Positions 1,722 through 10,016 of a stretch of DNA of 10,016 bases are shown here, one piece after another; position 1 is the stretch's first letter, and every line of letters begins with the position of its first letter. The notes beneath the pieces were generated by a model, which saw only the letters and a program-made list of their open reading frames with translations, did not search any database and was not told where the DNA came from. Both the position numbers and the translations under genes were made by a program. The stretch is from Candidatus Thorarchaeota archaeon. GTDB lineage: Archaea > Asgardarchaeota > Thorarchaeia > Thorarchaeales > Thorarchaeaceae. The stretch spans positions 1 through 10,016 of the forward strand of contig JBHIAE010000080.1 in assembly GCA_046758445.1 (NCBI GenBank). Reading direction: 5' to 3'.

Positions 1722-1754
1722 TGCAACCCCGTCTAGCAATAGCAGGTTGGGAGT
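1722..1754 (+). repeat. Dispersed intergenic repeat family R1, copy A (core only)
   Basis: TGCAACCCCGTCTAGCAATAGCAGGTTGGGAGT is 28/33 identical to 7728-7760. Confidence 0.85.
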
Positions 1755-1867
1755 CTTGGCGTTTCACAGCATTCGTGAAAGCGTCTGCATATTCTCCTAA
1801 AGGATGGACTGATTAGTCACCAACAGGCTCACGACCTCTAGCGGGACAGTCTGCTAGATTCACGGAC

Positions 1868-1925
1868 AGACAATGCAAGGAGGATGAGATTTGCCAGAGG
1901 AACCAAGATACTGGGGATCATGGAA
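1868..1925 (+). repeat. Direct repeat R2, copy 1
   Basis: 55/58 identical to 8853-8910; the last 39 bp (1887-1925) match perfectly. Confidence 0.97.
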
Positions 1926-1959
1926 AGGGCTTTTTCCCAAAGGCACTTGTTAGGGTGAA

Positions 1960-2835
1960 TCAGTCCTCATTCAATTCAAAGGATGGATTTCTCTCATTGA
2001 CTACGTTGGTCGCCCGATCTTGAATTGCATCCGCGAGATCTGGGTGTTGATCAAGAAAACCCGGTATGCCGATATACAACCTATCCTCCTGAAGACCCTT
2101 GAACAGGATGTCAGCTGCCTCCTCGATAGTCTTTCCAGCCGCGAGTTGCTTCCTTACCGATTCCATTCATTCCCGCTCCCCGTCGGTAACGACATATTCC
2201 CTCGGGTCATTCTTCAAATCATCAGGTCGATTACGTTCCGAATCTGCAATGTCGGTGTCCACCTGGCCTGGGATGTAGACTGACACCTTGACGTGTGGGG
2301 CCCGTTGGGAGAGTTCAAAATGGAGACTCTCCGTAAGGGCAACCACAGCATGTTTTGAAGCACAATATGATCCAAATCCACCTATACCCGGGAGGACGCC
2401 ATTCGCAGATGATACGTTCACGATATGGCTTTGGGTAGATTGTTCAATCATTCTTGGCAGAAATGATTGAACTCCATACAAAGTTCCCCAGAAATTCACT
2501 CCCATGACCCATTCCCAATCGGCCAAGCTGCTCTCCCACACAGACTTGAATACCACCACCCCTGCATTATTCACGAGTAGATGGACCTCCCCGAAAGTGC
2601 CGAAGGCCATTTCAGCGAGTCTGTCAATGCCACTGGCCTCGTGAACATCAGTCTGAACAACCAGTGTGGTTGCTCCTAGTTCTTCTAGGTCAGCACTAGT
2701 TCTCTTCAGCGATTCCAGACCTATGCCCGCCAACACAACACGCATTCCCTCCTCTGCGCAGCGCAGTGCGACCCCACGCCCAATACCCCGCCCTGCTCCC
2801 GTAATCACTGCAACTTTTCCGTCAAAATCTCTCAT
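1960..2835 (-). pseudogene. Classical short-chain dehydrogenase/reductase interrupted by a single in-frame TGA (2167-2169)
   Basis: Motifs TGAGRGIG, NNAG, NVSS and YCASK are intact. ORFs 2167-2835 and 1960-2166 are in the same frame (...GAA TGA ATG GAA...) and together give a normal 291-codon SDR with the family C-terminus (AG...EEAADILFKGL...LYI). Confidence 0.8.
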
Positions 2836-3065
2836 TTCAGAACCCTCATTGAACCATGGTATGACTTAAGGAGATTAGATACAATCCTCTGTCCACGAAT
2901 GCGCGCTGGGACGGCTCGTGATGTTCGTGCACACTGCAGACCCCGGACTCCGGAAACTGTACAAACTGAGGCATTCTCTTCATAAGCCCCTTTGGCCCGA
3001 TGCATACTCGCTGTAGCTCAATGGACAGTACCCATCGATACCGACGCGACAGAGCCAGCATCAGT

Positions 3066-3116
3066 AGATTGCATATGTTACCATATCGAATAAGAAGAAG
3101 CGGTATTATGCAATCT
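3066..3116. other. Inverted repeat / hairpin
   Basis: AGATTGCATA (3066-3075) and TATGCAATCT (3107-3116) form perfect 10-bp arms, with an inner TACC/GGTA pair. Confidence 0.6.
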
Positions 3117-3140
3117 CTTTCGCCGGTCTGAATTCACACA

Positions 3141-3203
3141 GGTTATTGAAAACTCGCGGTACTCCGCTCTGTGCACGCCCGTCCAGCAATAGCACGTTGG
3201 GGG
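3141..3203 (+). repeat. Repeat family R1, copy B
   Basis: 3161-3203 is 37/43 identical to 7717-7759. The upstream GGTTATTGAAAAC resembles AGTTCTATGAAAAC of copy C. Confidence 0.88.
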
Positions 3204-3534
3204 CTACCTACTTGATCAATACTGCGCCACGGTAGTCAGCGTAAGAGTACGTTGTGACTCTGGACGACTTCTTCTACGAGAATATAGGCAGGTGTGAGGA
3301 CGCTCTGGAGAAGACGAGCGTGTTTGAATGCCAAGACGAAGAGGCGATAGCCTGGTCAAGCGAGCAAGGGACCACATCGCTGGCGGCGAAGGCTATGTTG
3401 CAAGGGAAGTAGGGTTCACTCTAGTGGACTACAGAGCTACTATGAGGAATATGCTTATATTCAAGTGCAAGTACGAAAGCTCAGTTATTTTCGCTGTCGT
3501 TCGCAAGGACGACAGATGTATATTAGGAGGGTAA

Positions 3535-4104
3535 TTGTTGTCGAGGGCCGCAGTTCTTATTGACTTAGGTTTCTTCTCGAAGGTTTTGAAGTTCTGTTTT
3601 GGAGAACCACGTGTTGACTTCGAGAAGCTATCCGAAACTCTGTGTGAGGGGAGAGAACGATTCCGAACTTACGTCTACGACTGTATGCCATATCAGAGTA
3701 ATCCTCCTACACAGCAGGAGAGAGAAAGGTATGGCAAGGTCGACTCGTTCATGAATCATCTGAGAAAACTGAATCGATTTCAGATTCGATTGGGTCGTCT
3801 TCAATACATCCCACAGAGGACTCCACCCTTCATGCAGAAACGTGTGGACGTCCACCTTGCGGTTGATCTAGTCCGCATGAGCTGGGGGAAGCAGATTGAC
3901 ACTGCAGTCTTGGTGGGAGGAGATAGTGACTACGTGCCTGCTGTGATGGCCGCCAAAGATGCTGGAGTTCTGACTATCCTCTACTATCGTATGTGCTACG
4001 ACAAGAACGGCAAGCTAAAGGCAAAGGCTTCCGATGAACTCATGGCGGCTTGTGACGAGTGTCGAGAGATTGACCAAAACCTGATCGACAAGGTCACCAT
4101 CTAG
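3535..4104 (+). CDS. NYN-domain (LabA/DUF88, PIN-like fold) putative ribonuclease
   Basis: Motifs VLID.., YVYD, QKRVDVHLAVD, LVGGDSDYVPAV and SDELMAACD. RBS AGGAGG at 3525-3530 precedes TTG 3535/3538. Confidence 0.93.
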   Translation: MLSRAAVLIDLGFFSKVLKFCFGEPRVDFEKLSETLCEGRERFRTYVYDCMPYQSNPPTQQERERYGKVDSFMNHLRKLNRFQIRLGRLQYIPQRTPPFMQKRVDVHLAVDLVRMSWGKQIDTAVLVGGDSDYVPAVMAAKDAGVLTILYYRMCYDKNGKLKAKASDELMAACDECREIDQNLIDKVTI

Positions 4105-4276
4105 ATAGACAGACACCTCTCACCAGACGGTCAAGTACCGATTAGGCTCCGGATATCCAAGAGTAATATCATCCAATCACCGAGAAACCTCCAGCTACCA
4201 CCTGTTTCAATTCGTCGAGAGTCTAGGAAAAGGAAGTCGTGGCAGACCATCTGTAATCTAGGTCCATATTCACAAA

Positions 4277-4348
4277 AGTTCTATGAAAACCCTTAAAACT
4301 CGGCTTGGTGCAGACCCCTTCAGCAATAGCGGGTTGGGGGATGGTTCT
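4277..4348 (+). repeat. Repeat family R1, copy C
   Basis: 59/72 aligned positions are identical to 7697-7767 (one gap). Confidence 0.9.
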
Positions 4349-4395
4349 AGTTTCCTTCTTATTATCTCGCCACTATACCTCATGTAATGTATTAC

Positions 4396-5016
4396 TCAGC
4401 GACTCTCAGCATACACTAATTCTGCTCTCATGACTTTCACTAGTGGGTACAGCGCAAAAGTGAACGCGACCAGACCGCCTATGAGATGGAGGAGTGCTCC
4501 CATGGCAAACATCCTGAAGACTAAGACCAATAGGAAAACCTCAACGACTCCGAATATCACTACCACTGGCACGTCGGAGGGCTCAGCCAAGTCGTGGTCC
4601 ATTCGATTGAGAGCCCAGATGATGGGCAACGCCAAGAACAAGCCGCCCATCGATAGAAACGCCAGCATGATCGTGCATGCATAGTGTTGCAGATGTATGA
4701 ACTCGCTCTGGTCAGGACTCTGGGGAAACTCATACACCGGTCGGCCATCAGGCCAGCCAATCACAATCCTGTAGAAGAACTGATCAGCCTCATAGTCACG
4801 GTACTGCTGCATCGTGAATGGGAATGCACCAGGCGGCTGAACCCTTAGCATCCTCTCTGTGTCAACTTGAAACTCAGTGAAGCCTCCAACTGTTCCCGTG
4901 ACCACAATGATGTAGACCAACGCAATTCCTAGTGCTAGCACATGGATCATTTGCTGTTGTCCACTCTTCTTCAGTGGCAGCCATAACAACACTGTCATGA
5001 CCATAACAACAATCAA
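4396..5016 (-). CDS. Hypothetical multi-pass membrane protein (5' end uncertain)
   Basis: 206-aa ORF with about 5 hydrophobic segments and a soluble loop of about 70 aa. An in-frame TAG immediately precedes the TTG start, so the true N-terminus may be disrupted. Confidence 0.7.
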   Translation of the reverse strand: MIVVMVMTVLLWLPLKKSGQQQMIHVLALGIALVYIIVVTGTVGGFTEFQVDTERMLRVQPPGAFPFTMQQYRDYEADQFFYRIVIGWPDGRPVYEFPQSPDQSEFIHLQHYACTIMLAFLSMGGLFLALPIIWALNRMDHDLAEPSDVPVVVIFGVVEVFLLVLVFRMFAMGALLHLIGGLVAFTFALYPLVKVMRAELVYAESR

Positions 5017-5138
5017 CTATGCGACCCACAGCCAATGCGGCTCGGATTCTCAAATACCTTCCTTTGTGCAAGCCCATGTACCAATACAAAGAAGCCAGTT
5101 GACGAAGCTTGCACAAGTATCATAGTTCCTGACAAGAA

Positions 5139-5614
5139 TCAGTCCCATGGCGACACAGGCTCGGGGACCGGTCTTAGCCACATTACTAGGGCCCCGGCCA
5201 ATAGGAGGACTGGGACCGGTATGAACAGGTAGAGGCCAATAAGAAGAGAGAACGGAATCGTGGCCAACATCAGTAGCGTCATGACAAAACCAGGACCGTC
5301 AGCGACCACACCGAGAACGAGCGTAAGCCTTCTACTGGTCGCCTTCCTGTAGTACCTATCCACTTGGTACACGAACAGAAGGAGGAATGCCAGGAACGGG
5401 GCTGTGAACGTGAGTTGAAATGGTTCAAATATGATGAAGTGCTTGCCATACCTATAGTCATTGTATGCCCATATGGCCGCAAGTATTGTCGTAGACATTG
5501 TGAAACATAGCAGAAGATTGGGGCCAAGAGTGCCAAGGCGGCCAATCCGATGGCCACGAGTCTTCTGTCCACAGCTGCTTGAATCTCTGTGGGGGGGTCA
5601 CTCACTCTGCTCAC
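5139..5614 (-). pseudogene. Small multi-pass membrane protein with an apparent frameshift near 5500
   Basis: The N-terminal TM segment (RRLVAIGLAALALLAPIFCYVS) is in the frame of ORF 5279-5614. The remaining TM helices (MSTTILAAIW...PVPEPVSPWD) are in the frame of ORF 5139-5498. Adding one base joins them into about 158 aa. Confidence 0.6.
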
Positions 5615-5656
5615 TTCAGGATTCAGTCGGATTTCCGTTGATCTATCGGAGCGTTT

Positions 5657-7486
5657 CTATATCCCATCTTTCCTAAGCACATAGACAAGGACTATGATGA
5701 CTACGACTGCACCTCCGCCACCTAGTATGACGATTAGTATCGTTTGGTCGTCAGGAAGAGCTGTTGAGGAAGTGGTTGTTGTCGTGGTACTGGTCGTGGA
5801 TGTCGTTGTGGTTGTAGTCGTTGTGGTAGTTGTTGGAGGAGGCATATCTATCGTCAGTAGGCCAAAATACCAGTTTGCGGTGATGTCAAGGATGACATCA
5901 TGTACATCCGTGGTGCTAACAGCAACTGTATGTCCTTGCCAGAGTGGGACAATAGAACATTCGTCTGCTTGCAGTTCTTGTAGGGATTCGTAAGCTGTCT
6001 GTCTGTCCAGGTCTGTGGTGGCACTTCTTCCATCAATCCATAGGTTGTATTGGTTGATTCCTCCCAGTGGGTATGTGCTGTTGTATCCTAGGTTGAGCCA
6101 CCATGCAAATGGCAAGAAGGCGTAGTTGTCCGGATCTATGAAGTCAGGATACCAGCCGTAGATGAACACTTCCATGATGCCATTGTTCCTGTTCTGCCTG
6201 TAAGTGGCCCATTCGGCACTCAGCAATGTGACGTCGATAACCCCACTCGCTTCCAAGTCGGCCTCATATACAAGCGCCTGTTCAGCACTCTGTGGGTAGT
6301 GTCCTGAGCTCTCATACCAGAGCCCAATCTGAAGCTTGTTTCCAGCATTATAGCCGAAGTCGTCAAGACAATCTTGGGTATAGGTATAGTTGGCATCTCC
6401 ATACTTCTGAAACGAGGGCTTGTGATAAGCAAGACCATCAGGAATTATGCTATACAAGGGATCAACCGTATTGAGAAAGACAAGATCAACCATGTGAGTC
6501 CTGTTCAATGCGGCGGTAATCCCTTGCCTGATTCTAGTTTCATTAAAAGGATAGATGTTCTGTTGAAAGCACATGTATTGGATCTGGGGACCAAGCCCCT
6601 CCCATACAGTGAAACTAGGAAGGTTCCCGAATGTGTCCGTCTGAACTGGAGTGAGATATCTATAAGCTACGTCCACATCCCCTGATAACAATGCAGCAGC
6701 GAGTGCTGTTGCAGAAGCATAGAACTTGATGATGATAACATCAGTCTGTGGAAGTGTCGTGCTCCAATAGTAAGGGTTCTTTTCTAGGCGCATTGACTGG
6801 TCGCTACCTCCAACTCGATTCCATTCTGTCAGATTGTATGGGCCCAGACCACATGGATGACTGGCGCGCGCATCCGAATCTGTAAACCGAACATAATCCC
6901 CCAAAGGTGCATACCTTGGGTGTACAATAGCCGATGCCGCGCAGGACATCAATTGAAGGAATGGAGCGAATGCTGTGTTCAGGTAGAATCGTACTGAATA
7001 ATCGCCGGTTATGGTGATGTTCTCGATGATTAAGTCATAGCCTATGTTCACCTGGGGACCATCGGGCAATGCTAGACCAATGTTACGGTCAAAGCTGTAT
7101 TTCACCACTGAGGCGTTAAGCGGATATCCATCGAAGAATGTGAGTCCTTGTTTCAAGTTGAAGTCCCAGATGGTTCCTCCGCCACTCATGGCCCACGATT
7201 CTGCAAGTGCCCCCTGGATGTTGTTAGACCCAGCATCTGACCCTGGTATAATCTCAACCAATCCTGAGCTGAGGGCCGATATTAACGCCCAGCCAAAGTA
7301 GTCATATGATTGGGCTGGGTCAAGACTGGCTTCGACGCTGTCAGTAGTACCCATAGTGATCGTTGTTTCAACTTGAGCTAGAATGTTCGGGAATCCGGAC
7401 GGGCTTCCCGCAAGTTGACCATTCACAGTTCCAACAAAAAGCAGTAGAACGACTGTAGCTCCGACAATCTCATACGATTTAGCCAC
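5657..7486 (-). CDS. ABC transporter substrate-binding protein, family 5 (OppA/DppA-like), with Thr-rich linker and C-terminal membrane anchor
   Basis: Motifs SLDPA, GALAESW, WDFNLKQGLTFFDG..LNA..VKYSFDR, GLGPY, KNPYYW, RIRQGI and GWYPDFIDPDNY. It has an N-terminal hydrophobic signal and a C-terminal TM helix followed by RK. The likely start is GTG 7486 after GGAGGAGGAGGT; the ORF track starts at 7510. Confidence 0.95.
   Translation of the reverse strand: MAKSYEIVGATVVLLLFVGTVNGQLAGSPSGFPNILAQVETTITMGTTDSVEASLDPAQSYDYFGWALISALSSGLVEIIPGSDAGSNNIQGALAESWAMSGGGTIWDFNLKQGLTFFDGYPLNASVVKYSFDRNIGLALPDGPQVNIGYDLIIENITITGDYSVRFYLNTAFAPFLQLMSCAASAIVHPRYAPLGDYVRFTDSDARASHPCGLGPYNLTEWNRVGGSDQSMRLEKNPYYWSTTLPQTDVIIIKFYASATALAAALLSGDVDVAYRYLTPVQTDTFGNLPSFTVWEGLGPQIQYMCFQQNIYPFNETRIRQGITAALNRTHMVDLVFLNTVDPLYSIIPDGLAYHKPSFQKYGDANYTYTQDCLDDFGYNAGNKLQIGLWYESSGHYPQSAEQALVYEADLEASGVIDVTLLSAEWATYRQNRNNGIMEVFIYGWYPDFIDPDNYAFLPFAWWLNLGYNSTYPLGGINQYNLWIDGRSATTDLDRQTAYESLQELQADECSIVPLWQGHTVAVSTTDVHDVILDITANWYFGLLTIDMPPPTTTTTTTTTTTSTTSTTTTTTSSTALPDDQTILIVILGGGGAVVVIIVLVYVLRKDGI
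5763..5843 (-). repeat. Low-complexity Pro/Thr/Ser linker-coding tract
   Basis: Encodes PPP followed by a Thr/Ser run. Codons vary, so selection is at the protein level rather than a microsatellite. Confidence 0.85.
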
Positions 7487-7544
7487 AGGACCTCCTCCTC
7501 CAATGCTCACGCGAATGTTTCAGTACATGTATGCTTCTATGTAG

Positions 7545-7576
7545 ATTTGACTGTTTCGAGATGTTACCAGTCAAAT
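7545..7576. promoter_or_regulatory. Inverted repeat upstream of the solute-binding protein gene (possible operator or hairpin)
   Basis: ATTTGACTG-N14-CAGTCAAAT, perfect 9-bp arms. Confidence 0.4.
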
Positions 7577-7696
7577 GCCATCTCAGCTTATCAAAGAAAC
7601 TCCTTGTCAACAAGACTAACCGGACTATGAAGTTTGCATATGACACCGCAGAGTAGGTTAGTCAAACTGTGGCCAGCAGAATCCCTAGATTTGCCG

Positions 7697-7767
7697 AGTT
7701 CTATGAAGACCCTTAAACTCCGCTCTGTGCAACCCCGTTCCGCAAAAGCAGGTTGGGGGTGGGTTCT
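7697..7767 (+). repeat. Repeat family R1, copy D
   Basis: Aligns with copies A, B and C. Potential pairings are CAACC/GGTTG and AAGACCC/GGGT(T)CTT. Confidence 0.9.
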
Positions 7768-7885
7768 TTAGGGCACTCTATTCAGTCCAATGGCGTTTCC
7801 ATGGGCGTGTAAGAGCGCTCTAGATTTCCAGAGCTATCTAAATTCTTTTAATTTCTATGACCCTAGTCTTGGGTTGTTGGGAACT

Positions 7886-8341
7886 ATGTCTAGAATATCA
7901 AGACCATTGATAGTGGCCCTAGGAATAGCAGTAATCGTTATTGGCACAATAAGCTGGTGGTCATTCTCCCCAATGCTCTTGCCCCCAGAACAACCTGAAT
8001 TCACAGTCTTGTTATCGGGATCTCTTCAGGAAGTTGATGCGTCACACACAGGCAGTGGAACCGTACAGCTCGTACAATCCGATACAGGAAACCAGTCAAT
8101 TCTTTTCATTGATGTGTTTATTACAAGTGGACCAGACCTATACGTCTATCTTTCCAACAAAAGTAGCTTCTCAGGCATCTATGATGATCCGGGGGAGTAT
8201 GTAAGTCTTGGCCTGACTCCTGCCGTCACGGGGAGTTTTACCGTGCCAATCCCCGAAAACATCAATGGAACTGATTATGCTTCAGTTCTTATTTGGTGCC
8301 AGGCTTATGCAGTCCTGTTCACGTATGCCGTACTTGAATGA
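7886..8341 (+). CDS. DM13 domain protein with N-terminal membrane anchor
   Basis: Motifs H.GSG.V, GPDLYVYLS, VSLG and IP......Y.SVLIWC...VLF. The likely start is ATG 7886 (MSRISRPLIVALG..., TM helix); the ORF track starts at 7790. Confidence 0.88.
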   Translation: MSRISRPLIVALGIAVIVIGTISWWSFSPMLLPPEQPEFTVLLSGSLQEVDASHTGSGTVQLVQSDTGNQSILFIDVFITSGPDLYVYLSNKSSFSGIYDDPGEYVSLGLTPAVTGSFTVPIPENINGTDYASVLIWCQAYAVLFTYAVLE

Positions 8342-8498
8342 GAACCATCTCTGTTTGCTCTTGGTCGATGGATTCACGATGGCGTTCTGTGAGAGGCTTC
8401 TAGATACGAAGTAGAATCTGCACCAGTCTCGTTTCTACTAGGGTTTTTAGCGAAGCAGTGTGTATCCGGTTTGATTCCAACCTCTAGGTGGTTGAAAA

Positions 8499-8846
8499 TT
8501 GTTTCTTGATGTCGGACAATGGCAAATTCCGGTCGAGAGTAGTAGAGAACACAAAGAAATAGTCCTAAAACTGCTTGATCATCACAGAGCTAACCCTGAT
8601 GAGTTCCCCTACAAGGAAGCATACTTCTACAAGATGCCTAGCGAAGACGCTTCTGTCGAGTCTTGGATGTACATACACATATTCGATAGCACTGAAGCCT
8701 TCTTGAAAATGGAAGACGCACAACAAAGAATGCTGGAAACAGAACCCGAATTGAAGGCCGCTATGGATAGGGCGTTTGAATTGATGGTTTCTGATTCTTG
8801 GAGGACTACACAATGGACTAGGGTTCAAGAATCTCGTAATGAATAG
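8499..8846 (+). CDS. Hypothetical protein, possibly dimeric alpha-beta barrel (ABM/NIPSNAP/DUF1428-like) fold
   Basis: 115-aa ORF with RBS-like AGGTGG upstream of TTG. The beta-alpha-beta-beta-alpha-beta pattern with WMYIHIFDS.EAF suggests the fold; this assignment is inference. Confidence 0.7.
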   Translation: MFLDVGQWQIPVESSREHKEIVLKLLDHHRANPDEFPYKEAYFYKMPSEDASVESWMYIHIFDSTEAFLKMEDAQQRMLETEPELKAAMDRAFELMVSDSWRTTQWTRVQESRNE

Positions 8847-8852
8847 TAGAAT

Positions 8853-8910
8853 AGACACTGAAAGGAGGATTAGATTTGCCAGAGGAACCAAGATACTGGG
8901 GATCATGGAA
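8853..8910 (+). repeat. Direct repeat R2, copy 2
   Basis: 55/58 identical to 1868-1925. Confidence 0.97.
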
Positions 8911-8934
8911 GCTACATCTGCTTCCTTTACATAC

Positions 8935-8998
8935 GTGACTGATACTCGAGTTGCCATTGGCTTTCGATTTTACTCACGAGGACACCGAGATCAGTCAT
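8935..8998. other. Long imperfect inverted repeat
   Basis: GTGACTGAT(A)CTCG ... CGAGATCAGTCAT gives 8+4 Watson-Crick pairs around a single bulged A. Confidence 0.55.
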
Positions 8999-9135
8999 GG
9001 CTCAGCCTATTTCGCCTCTCGGAAGTCTTATGTCGAAGCTCCGGACATAGTCTGGTTTGTAGTGTTGTCATATCTGTGACACAACTTCAGGTCCAGCTTT
9101 CTTGCCAGTACTATCTTTATGTCTAGCCTATCTGA

Positions 9136-10016
9136 ATGAATAATGGAGAGCCAAAAGTGCTTGGCGTAGAGGAACTAAAGGAAACGATTGAACTCACAAA
9201 TGAAACAGTGGAATGTCCAGTTAAGGGATGTAGTAAGAGGGTAAAAAGACAAAGACGAGGAGACAGATTCGACGAAGACAGATTCAAGTGTCAAACGCAT
9301 AATATCTTCATTTCTCCATCCACCTTTCAATACCCAAGTGTAGAAGATAACCTTCTTTGGAGAGATAAGCAAGGTCAAGGACTACTAGATAGAATAAAGA
9401 CAAAGAAACGACTATGGTATCCGTGGATGGCACGGGAAAGAAGCGAAGATGCTGTTAGTTGGAATGTCTTCAGATTCTTGGAGAAGAATGATCTAGTCGA
9501 GGGATTCTTGGAGTCGATTACTAACTCATCATTGAGTTCTTCAGAAGTGATTTACTGGTCGTACAGCCAGAGTGAAGACGCTGGCTGGCCCCCACTAAAC
9601 AAAGCAAGAAAAGAGTTTGGCGAGTGGATATCGCAGAGTTCAGAGCCTGATATAACTATCATAACTGATATTGCACTGTTCTTTGTTGAGGTAAAGTTAA
9701 CCTCTGATGGGAAGAATCCACCCCGCAAATCCAAGAAGTATGAAACCGGTGGCGATAATTGGTTCTCAGAAGTCTTTCAATCGGACTACGAAACGGTTGC
9801 AAAAGCTGAGGGACAACTCATGCGTTTCTGGCTACTTGGATCTTGGATGGCCAAGGAAATGGACCTAGATTTCTATCTCATGAATCTCGTACTGTCTGAA
9901 CGAGATGCGAATATCGAGGCCATCTTTGGGAGGCACATCAAGGAGAATCAGCGAAGGAGGTTCTTGAGAGCTACATGGGAGGCCATCTATGAGTACATCT
10001 CAAAGACAGGTCCATC
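9136..10016 (+). CDS. PD-(D/E)XK-superfamily putative endonuclease with N-terminal C-x4-C-x19-C-x2-H zinc finger (3' end outside window)
   Basis: The frame is open from ATG 9136 (or GTG 9157) to the window end, 293 codons by manual translation. Motifs are CPVKGC...KCQTH, RSEDAVSWNVF, SEPD, FFVEVK and QLMR. Absent from the ORF track because there is no stop. Confidence 0.85.
   Translation, partial: MNNGEPKVLGVEELKETIELTNETVECPVKGCSKRVKRQRRGDRFDEDRFKCQTHNIFISPSTFQYPSVEDNLLWRDKQGQGLLDRIKTKKRLWYPWMARERSEDAVSWNVFRFLEKNDLVEGFLESITNSSLSSSEVIYWSYSQSEDAGWPPLNKARKEFGEWISQSSEPDITIITDIALFFVEVKLTSDGKNPPRKSKKYETGGDNWFSEVFQSDYETVAKAEGQLMRFWLLGSWMAKEMDLDFYLMNLVLSERDANIEAIFGRHIKENQRRRFLRATWEAIYEYISKTGP

Follow-up and report, generated by a model that had tools for sequence, protein, structure and literature searches.

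Orphaned copies of the initiator tRNA promoter and 5′ end separate accessory gene blocks in a thorarchaeial genome

The window analyzed here, 10,016 nucleotides from a Candidatus Thorarchaeota archaeon, is contig C80 of genome G000; the genomes compared with it are designated G004, G007, G008, and so on. It begins with the 3′ end of a PIN (VapC-like) gene on the + strand (positions 1–152; Pfam PIN E value of 0.008, below the cut-off), the 5′ part of which is on contig C24. The end of C24 and the start of C80 share a unique 55-nt overlap, with the PIN reading frame continuous across it, and because this gene is split across both contigs we joined C24 to the left end of C80. Pfam searches identified a ferritin/Dps-like gene (670–1233, − strand) and a Fur gene (1313–1705, + strand), both to the left of the first copy (A) of an intergenic repeat, R1. 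Homology of this pair to three other genera stops at 668–671 and 1676–1699, and R1 was present at none of 15 Fur-orthologue loci; as judged from these sequence limits, the pair is a portable two-gene module in other genera rather than a fixed anchor. To the right, R1 copies divide the window into blocks. Block 1 (1758–3127) holds a short-chain dehydrogenase gene on the − strand (1960–2835), a single frame split by an in-frame TGA, and block 2 (3210–4264, + strand) holds a decayed small reading frame (3254–3412) followed by an NYN-domain nuclease gene (3535–4104). Block 3 (4347–7684, − strand) carries two membrane-protein genes (4396–5016 and 5139–5498) and a family-5 solute-binding protein gene (5657–7510). 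Block 4 and the region beyond it (7768–10,016, + strand) comprise a DM13-domain gene (7790–8341) and unknown genes at 8499–8846 and 9136–10,014; the last gene runs off the contig, so that this block is open at the contig end. The blocks of the window measure 1.1 to 3.4 kb and contain one to three genes each, with two of the three closed blocks on the strand opposite to R1, whereas those of a second contig of the same genome, C65, reach 6.4 kb. The accessory genes on the two contigs include nucleases, a restriction-modification pair, a kinase, and toxin-antitoxin pieces.

The four R1 copies reported by an earlier note on this DNA (1722–1754, 3141–3203, 4277–4348, and 7697–7767, all on the + strand) were found again at these coordinates, and none overlaps an ORF accepted as a gene. 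The identities to copy D were reproduced for copies A (28/33) and B (37/43), whereas recalculation for copy C gave 61/70 rather than 59/72. The extent originally assigned to the repeat was too short: copies B, C, and D are alike for about 15 nt further left, and several copies are alike for about 50 nt further right. Alignment of the four window copies with their flanks revealed 31 invariant columns. When an nhmmer profile was run against the whole 3.25-Mb G000 assembly, eight R1 matches were obtained with E values from 2e-20 to 1e-4, the next match having E = 0.08; the similarity is far beyond chance. The eight copies, which are ∼75 to 88% alike, are confined to C80 (four copies) and C65 (four copies) and are co-oriented on each contig (4/4 and 4/4). 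The R1 core includes an inverted repeat (AACCCG/CGGGTT, spaced 11 nt) that exhibited no compensatory change, an observation that counts against the site-specific accretion discussed below.

R1 had been described as unrecognized, but its origin is evident: each copy is an orphan that duplicates the control region at the 5′ end of the initiator tRNA (tRNA-iMet) gene, namely the native BRE/TATA-like promoter, a spacer of ∼25 to 29 nt, and the first 12 to 13 nt of tRNA-iMet. The last copy on C65 continues into the tRNA itself, which there is cut by the contig end, and C65 positions 14484–14538 match, at 94.5% identity, the first part of a G004 gene that ARAGORN called as tRNA-Met(CAT) once two intron-like stretches had been removed. 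In G004, the whole tRNA-iMet gene follows an R1 copy. Six native tRNA-iMet genes were retrieved from genomes of the family; every one starts with the same 12-mer, and five of the six share the same upstream AAAA(C/G)CCTTAA(A/T)AC box. Of 41 family genomes, 35 contain this tRNA-start 12-mer, usually as a single occurrence, compared with two matches in total for the reversed control. Direct repeats of a displaced tRNA fragment with an intact tRNA at one end, as seen here, are what defines 5′-type tRNA-targeting elements.

The window copies differ in how much of this control region they retain. Copy C (4265–4346, + strand) is full, with a TATA-like box (CCTTAAAAC at 4291–4299), the spacer, and an exact tRNA-iMet start (AGCGGGTTGGGG at 4328–4339). 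Copy D (7685–7767, + strand) also is full, with one base missing in its TATA part and a tRNA-start-like 12 nt at 7747–7758. Copy B (3128–3209, + strand) has a decayed promoter part that has lost the TATA, together with a retained spacer and a tRNA-start-like 12 nt at 3191–3202. Copy A (1722–1757, + strand) is a short form of only ∼35 nt, made up of the last ∼20 nt of the promoter-to-tRNA spacer and a tRNA-start-like 12 nt at 1741–1752, with no TATA part. There are at least six such short copies, found in five distinct left contexts and all starting near −22. On the right, similarity ends after tRNA position 12 to 13 in copies whose right flanks are unrelated; this boundary is not unique, with the break following tRNA position 6 in three copies and one G004 copy running on to about tRNA position 48. 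Orphan copies also were found in two further genera (G072 and G030). Among 25 orphans, the frequency of the commonest base was 0.92 for tRNA positions +1 to +12, 0.81 for the spacer (−19 to −1), and 0.72 for the TATA part, a pattern that fits a recombination site better than a promoter.

The differences in gene content between G000 and G007 break at R1, which is where the earlier note had proposed looking for gain and loss breakpoints. The G007 contig C504 has, in order, the solute-binding protein block, an R1 copy, an extra block of 1.25 to 1.3 kb, a core copy, and the DM13 flank. Window positions 6199–7766, on the side of the solute-binding protein block, are 94% identical to this contig, and positions 7731–8130 of the DM13 flank are 92.8% identical to it beyond the extra cassette; G007 has an additional 1.25- to 1.3-kb cassette between two blocks that are parted in G000 by copy D alone. 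The extra block corresponds to C65 positions 1–1249 of G000 (93.6% identical), and in both genomes it keeps its own unusual short R1 copy, whereas its right-hand neighbors differ. G000 and G007 being different species, either a gain by one or a loss from the other could account for the block. In G008 (contig C294), a full R1 copy directly follows a NUDIX gene that in G000 lies 3.2 kb to the left of copy A. Public contigs from two other samples have variant flanks that begin exactly at the end of copy C; the same two samples provided a D-to-core joint, whose short side extends only 31 to 32 nt at 90% likeness. All of these genomes are fragmented MAGs, with G004 consisting of contigs joined by runs of N, and array order was read within single contigs; among the fragmented MAGs compared, neither an excised circle nor a clean empty site was seen. 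The suggestion that R1 copies are cassette-like recombination sites holds in outline: the copies are few, clustered, and co-oriented, and the whole blocks by which species differ end at R1, so that none of the grounds the earlier note had named for abandoning the idea applies. We infer that accessory blocks were stacked and swapped ahead of the initiator tRNA gene and that the R1 copies mark the places.

Sites of the attC type are imperfect palindromes (R″-L″...L′-R′) that fold as single-stranded hairpins and conserve structure over sequence, and most integron cassettes consist of one promoterless ORF that points the same way as the array. Integrons also place an IntI integrase, a tyrosine recombinase with an IntI-specific domain, beside the array together with an attI site. 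That R1 encodes or forms a structured RNA or a single-stranded DNA hairpin, either a small RNA or an attC-like integron/CALIN site, is suggested by the 6-bp inverted repeat of its consensus (83% of cells pair), by its right end, GTTGGGG, which fits 6 of 7 positions of GTTRRRY (the consensus as quoted by the earlier note), and by the enrichment of archaeal integrons, mostly CALINs, in Asgard MAGs, as far as the account in PMC9668308 goes. The CAACC/GGTTG stems noted earlier are indeed visible; however, the 28 copies lend them no support, with double-sided changes at zero pairs of the inverted repeat and one pair of an alternative hairpin, neither being above shuffled controls. Rfam gave no matches in the window at E ≤ 1 or on C65 at E ≤ 0.1, and DNA folding of the four copies on both strands yielded z-scores from −1.27 to +0.58. 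R1 conserves sequence rather than structure. The possible hairpin, assessed by eye, is ∼33 nt and has no L-box or extrahelical bases, the blocks carry genes on either strand and reach up to 3.4 kb in the window and 6.4 kb on C65, and the tRNA promoter plus tRNA start explain the R1 sequence fully. We therefore regard this reading as largely refuted, with only a very slight likelihood left to it. Of the earlier proposal of a structured RNA or regulatory element, the structural half fails on Rfam, covariation, and folding, whereas the regulatory half stands in that R1 is a copy of the tRNA-iMet promoter; the accompanying judgment that R1 does not fit attC agrees with the folding z-scores and the lack of covariation, which reveal no attC fold. 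An integron/CALIN assignment of the locus was considered and rejected, as an attC fold, an IntI adjoining the array (as judged by PF00589 matches, within the contig ends), and a predominance of single co-oriented ORF cassettes all were absent.

The notion that the R1 copies derive from an insertion sequence, as its solo ends or as MITE remnants, arose from their short length and intergenic location, and from a loose resemblance of the start of copy B to an IS5-like terminus in the earlier note. That start is a decayed promoter segment that aligns with the other copies. G000 has just eight copies, co-oriented on two contigs, with no transposase domain in the 25 ORFs scanned on those contigs, and R1 lacks terminal inverted repeats or target duplications. 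Copy number and placement rule out this origin, to which we assign practically no probability.

The interpretation that we consider probable is the tandem, site-specific accretion of integrase-less modules at the 5′ end of tRNA-iMet, in the manner of pTN3-type elements, with the recombinase supplied in trans. Modules of 1.1 to 6.4 kb that have no recombinase gene and each carry their own R1 site would enter the 5′ end of the tRNA-iMet gene through site-specific recombination, and each insertion would rebuild the promoter plus tRNA on one side while leaving a dead R1 copy on the other. Repeated insertions would therefore produce a co-oriented stack of blocks parted by R1 and ending in the real tRNA gene, as at the end of C65, with the window representing the distal part of the stack. 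About 35 bp, spanning roughly −22 to +13 with the tRNA start as reference, would be the smallest core sufficient for retention as a site. The recombinase would have to act in trans: scanning 25 ORFs on C80 and C65 detected no recombinase or transposase domain, and neither contig (their ends bounding the search) had a PF00589 match that could represent an IntI integrase. G000 has only two PF00589 proteins, on C34 and C52 with no R1 copy nearby, and both, at 71 and 30 bits, fall well short of the 220 bits that the XerA cut-off requires. PF16795 gave nothing above cut-off in G000, the decayed frame after copy B has no integrase relatives, and five congeners revealed no tyrosine recombinase on an R1-bearing contig or at such a place. 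Six metagenome contigs with R1 copies contained no integrase, and 55 viral-contig loci yielded nothing alike beyond a ∼20-nt seed and no free element with R1.

The failure to find a recombinase near any R1 copy also is compatible with an unlikely alternative that needs no dedicated enzyme, in which the segment was duplicated a few times and homologous recombination between copies of 70 to 130 nt reshuffles the blocks. Copy pairs share perfect runs of about 23 to 24 nt (in alignments inspected by eye), neither the left nor the right boundary of R1 is strictly unique, and homologous recombination between tandem integrated archaeal elements is, within the account in PMC8371274, a proposed route of module exchange. 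Yet G000 copies that are ∼75 to 88% alike make a poor substrate, and a single position accounts for most right ends, and another for the starts of the short copies, although the surrounding contexts are unrelated. The gain of R1 by new outside blocks also is left unexplained. Less probable still is that R1 is kept mainly as a portable promoter, or promoter plus leader, for neighboring accessory genes, with its position at block edges being secondary. The left part of R1 is a genuine archaeal promoter, copy D is upstream of the + strand DM13 gene, and a truncated Endonuc_Holl (PF10107) gene on metagenome contig L118 is entered in frame by an ORF whose ATG lies inside R1; however, the blocks that follow copies A and C on the right (blocks 1 and 3) have their genes on the opposite strand, the TATA is absent from copy A and lost from copy B, and among the orphans conservation is weaker in the TATA part than in the tRNA fragment and spacer.

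Site-specific accretion at tRNA-iMet has partial counterparts among known systems. CIMEs and genomic islands accrete in tandem at tRNA genes between direct att repeats, and some are integrase-less with a recombinase in trans; the R1 stack resembles them in having modules at one tRNA gene parted by direct repeats. The described CIME-type cases concern the 3′ end of bacterial tRNA genes and have an integrase-bearing element in the stack or nearby, in contrast to an R1 site composed of the promoter plus 5′ end of an archaeal initiator tRNA with no known helper. IMEX at dif (e.g., in Vibrio) are recombinase-less modules that pile up in tandem at a short chromosomal site by using the host recombinase. 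They share with the R1 stack recombinase-less tandem modules at one short site with inverted-repeat arms; however, the R1 site is a tRNA promoter plus start rather than the replication-terminus dif, and the G000 tyrosine recombinases score far below the XerA cut-off. In the account given by PMC8371274, the 5′ half of a tRNA gene serves as attB for the pTN3-like archaeal integrases, the rebuilt tRNA being expressed from an element-borne promoter; the elements encode an integrase, and insertion splits its gene, within which the att site lies. These elements (SSV family, Thermococcales) thus match R1 in their 5′ tRNA target, rebuilt tRNA read from the element promoter, and displaced tRNA fragment at the other end, to the extent described there (PMC8371274), but no integrase or integrase fragment was found in R1 modules, the duplication takes in only 12 to 13 nt of the tRNA, and the promoter brought by the element duplicates the native tRNA promoter. 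Integrons and CALINs, including archaeal examples as far as Ghaly et al. 2022 (PMC9668308) describe them, similarly have co-oriented accessory/defense arrays, a repeated site, and blocks without a recombinase gene. In both cases the site travels at the 3′ end of the block, but R1 has no attC fold or adjoining IntI, its blocks are larger, often multi-gene, and on both strands, and its site derives from a tRNA gene control region.

R1 sites break MAG assemblies, as illustrated by the window being a whole 10-kb contig, and therefore the gene content around tRNA-iMet is systematically under-assembled. We tentatively raise the possibility, which remains rather doubtful, that thorarchaeial Asgard archaea have an independently evolved integron-like capture platform that docks at the initiator tRNA promoter and first bases by means of a ∼35-bp core. 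A host or helper recombinase, not yet recognizable, would insert and shuffle the cassettes, and leftover tRNA promoters could express the cassette genes, many of which are defense-related. If the accretion that we consider probable is correct, Asgard accessory and defense genes would be gathered by means of recombinase-less modules in a small, fast-changing stack before an essential tRNA gene. The lineage closest to eukaryotes would then have a compact means of exchanging genes that differs from both integrons and self-sufficient integrative elements and that implies a recombinase yet to be identified.

The four intergenic copies of R1 described in the earlier note were confirmed on the + strand at 1722-1754 (A), 3141-3203 (B), 4277-4348 (C) and 7697-7767 (D). 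The identities to copy D were reproduced for copies A (28/33) and B (37/43), but copy C gave 61/70 rather than the 59/72 reported earlier. When the whole G000 assembly (3.25 Mb in 113 contigs, the window being all 10,016 bp of contig C80) was searched with a profile of the copies, eight places were returned with E values of 2e-20 to 1e-4, and the next match had E = 0.08. They are split evenly between C80 and the 14.5-kb contig C65, four each, and all are on the + strand of their contig. The unit is longer than described in the earlier note, with ∼15 more bases on the left in most copies and ∼50 more on the right in several; copy A and the first C65 copy comprise the ∼35-nt core only. R1 was found in 9 of the 17 genomes of the genus, G000 included. 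A Rab-like small GTPase on contig C34 fits the Asgard (Thorarchaeota-type) assignment of this genome.

The fourth C65 copy continues to the contig end in sequence that resembles a tRNA 5' half with the anticodon CAT, and this continuation is 94.5% identical to a locus in the related genome G004. The unedited G004 locus was called by neither ARAGORN nor Rfam; with two intron-like stretches cut out, the first behind the anticodon and the second within the T-loop, ARAGORN called it tRNA-Met(CAT). We take this tRNA to be the initiator (tRNA-iMet), applying general identity rules to its starting A, its CAT anticodon and a G-C-rich anticodon stem read by eye. All six native tRNA-iMet genes retrieved from family genomes start with AGCGGGTTGGGG followed by AAGCC, and five carry the box AAAA(C/G)CCTTAA(A/T)AC some 25 to 30 nt upstream; the gene of the congener G002 is box-bearing and intron-free. 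The tRNA-start 12-mer was present, mostly once, in 35 of 41 family genomes, compared with 2 matches altogether for the reversed control. On the basis of the native genes, the G004 tRNA call and the 12-mer census, R1 is therefore not the unrecognised repeat it had been taken for: it consists of the native tRNA-iMet promoter (left), the promoter-to-tRNA spacer (middle) and tRNA positions 1-12/13 (right). Copy C retains an intact box (4291-4299) and an exact 12-mer (4328-4339); the box has a one-base deletion in copy D and is lost in copy B, and copy A is without that part. A search of the G000 assembly did not find the remainder of this tRNA gene or the flank downstream of it.

Wherever contigs permitted the test, in comparisons with G007, G008 and G004, gene-content breakpoints fell at R1. 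In G007, a different species, contig C504 carries the solute-binding protein (SBP) block of the window (6199-7766, 94% identity) and then an R1 copy, followed by a 1.25-kb block (a short frame, an XRE-type regulator and a membrane protein) that is 93.6% identical to C65 1-1249, a short core copy, and the DM13 flank of the window (7731-8130, 92.8%). The SBP block and DM13 flank are separated in G000 solely by copy D; given the C504 order, one whole block therefore differs between the species at this place. In both G007 and G000 the 1.25-kb block ends on the right in one and the same unusual short copy, yet its right-hand neighbours differ; the site therefore moves together with the block to its left, just as attC accompanies its cassette in integrons. 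In G008, a full R1 copy lies directly after a NUDIX gene (C294); the G000 NUDIX gene is on C24, 3.2 kb left of copy A, with C24 and C80 joined by a unique 55-nt overlap across which a PIN reading frame is continuous. A C65 block is likewise preceded by an R1 copy in G004, a genome that we rejected as a closed reference because its contigs are joined by 100-N runs. Public contigs from two further samples of the same study contain a different 136-nt sequence, absent from G000, that starts exactly after copy C, as well as copy D joined at its end to a core and then to the right flank of a C65 block; these variants count as weak because their short sides span only 31-32 nt at 90% likeness. Three other joints in that comparison (237->1, 9052->165 and 6321->6947) were due to other repeats or paralogues, and a fourth (4111->7715) has a short side of only 25 nt. 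Reading R1 as a cassette boundary, one of the possibilities raised in the earlier note, is supported by one clean breakpoint between species and by several partial ones.

The anatomy of the copies bears on how such boundaries might arise. Where the right flanks are unrelated, R1 similarity stops after tRNA position 12-13, and the short copies, found in five distinct left contexts, all start near -22 (window copy A; C65 copy 1 and its G007 counterpart; G009; two in G004; and one further in G004). This common start and end therefore delimit a minimal site of ∼35 bp. The site holds AACCCG and CGGGTT, 11 nt apart, a layout that appears to resemble the core site of a tyrosine recombinase. Among 25 orphan copies, conservation was 0.92 for the tRNA fragment, 0.81 for the proximal spacer and 0.72 for the TATA part; because the tRNA fragment and proximal spacer are conserved above the TATA part, the pattern favours a recombination site rather than a promoter as the constrained function. 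Three exceptional copies, in G004 at 343 kb and 1944 kb (L025, L029) and on G006 C171 (L008), break after tRNA position 6 and join a common, different right flank, which may reflect a secondary site or another junction class. One G004 copy reaches to about tRNA position 48.

Several other identities for R1 were considered. Rfam gave no match in the window or on C65, and a tRNA search of the window gave no call. We aligned 28 copies, drawn from 7 genomes and 4 metagenome contigs, and scored the 6-bp inverted repeat of the core and a small hairpin proposed by RNAalifold; 0 and 1 pairs, respectively, had changed on both sides, and neither count exceeded shuffled controls. Single-strand DNA folds of the four window copies, on both strands, were no better than shuffles (z of -1.27 to +0.58). 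With no Rfam match, no covariation and shuffle-like folds, the repeated structured RNA entertained earlier was rejected. Canonical attC folds are retained in archaeal integrons (PMC9668308); R1 falls outside the attC/integron definition because it shows neither a fold signal nor compensatory change, and because of the block sizes and the mixed strands of the genes, in agreement with the earlier judgment that it does not fit attC. The proposal of solo IS/MITE ends was likewise rejected, as the eight copies are clustered and co-oriented and no transposase domain was found in 25 scanned ORFs. Nor was the reading frame that begins at the ATG inside R1 accepted as a conserved peptide: an open run of 19 codons in a single consensus is not unusual, and the TATA box of R1 lies downstream of that ATG. 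The decayed small frame after copy B (3254-3412) was unsupported as an integrase remnant: it has one odd match in 1.84 billion proteins, and its counterparts on C65 and in G007 are interrupted by stop codons.

Further elements occur in and near the arrays. A second short repeat (window 1864-1928 and 8853-8910; 58 nt, 94.8% identity), one copy of which lies ∼100 nt right of copy A, is also present at three G004 places (L025 and twice in L027). A third element, ∼60-70 nt long and containing two short palindromes read by eye, was seen at window 9019-9089, at C24 46303-46353 in G000 and in G004 (L027, L028, L029); on C24 it comes after the NUDIX gene, where G008 has the full R1 copy. The C65 array contains a ∼330-nt non-coding stretch (L003, 1686-2033) without an Rfam match. 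Matches to it at 72-83% identity occur in array loci of three relatives: G004, with three stretches of which one spans 76 nt; G008, with two; and G009. A candidate second array behind an acyl-CoA dehydrogenase gene was probed by quick BLAST searches with ∼110-140 nt around each of the six PF00441 gene ends, none of which returned a second copy at E < 1e-4. At 668-1699, the ferritin/Dps-like gene and the Fur gene behave as a portable two-gene module: compared with three other genera, similarity (74.8-75.8% DNA identity) ends at both gene ends, with unrelated flanks. Fur was rejected as a fixed chromosomal anchor of the array since dps-fur contexts differ in other genera; R1 was at none of 15 Fur orthologue loci. 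The short-chain dehydrogenase (1960-2835, - strand) is one 291-codon frame with a single in-frame TGA (2167-2169) directly followed by ATG, which could be a nonsense mutation, the junction of two coupled ORFs or a recoded stop. At 9136-10014, a protein of 293+ residues without a Pfam or PADLOC match runs off the contig end; by eye, its N-terminus is Cys-rich and it contains a D...EVK motif resembling that of restriction-endonuclease-fold proteins.

The two PF00589 proteins of G000 are encoded on C34 and C52, away from any R1 copy, and both score far under the archaeal XerA cut-off. No SSV-type integrase was found in G000, and in five congeners no tyrosine recombinase shared a contig or place with an R1 copy. 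None of 55 viral-contig loci showed more than the seed as a free element with R1, and a metagenome scan yielded only short array fragments carrying R1. One gene that recurs next to R1 is a truncated member of PF10107 ('endonuclease related to archaeal Holliday junction resolvase'), which starts exactly at the core in three loci from two sources: twice in G004 (L027 7761-8084; L028 7542-8087) and once on a metagenome contig, where the gene is fused in frame to R1. This contig was recovered as both L118 (464-838, - strand) and L124, identical over the stretch compared. The truncated form is without the N-terminal ∼50 residues of the full-length G000 relative on C59, and in two of three G004 places the third element lies behind it. 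The most likely mechanism, which we consider probable, is that modules without an integrase would accrete in tandem, site-specifically, at the 5' end of the initiator tRNA gene. It would resemble integration of the pTN3 type (PMC8371274), which targets the 5' part of a tRNA gene, but would lack an element-borne integrase. The main rival, homologous recombination between R1 copies, seems to us rather unlikely. A full-text literature search found no description of such tRNA-promoter arrays in Thorarchaeota.

Accessory and in many cases defence-like genes make up the blocks: the dehydrogenase, an NYN nuclease, part of a transporter and a DM13 protein are encoded in the window, whereas C65 encodes a pYEATS protein, a PLD-type nuclease, an MvaI/BcnI restriction-methylase pair and a protein kinase. 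Initiator tRNA genes of the family (L024 15718-15866 and 13437-13550; L126-L131) have intron-like insertions in the D-loop, after the anticodon or in the T-loop; that of one congener has no insertion, and in G004 a partial copy of the tRNA bears an additional insertion in its D-loop. If tRNA 5' parts were exchanged at the arrays, such intron-like insertions could pass from gene to gene.
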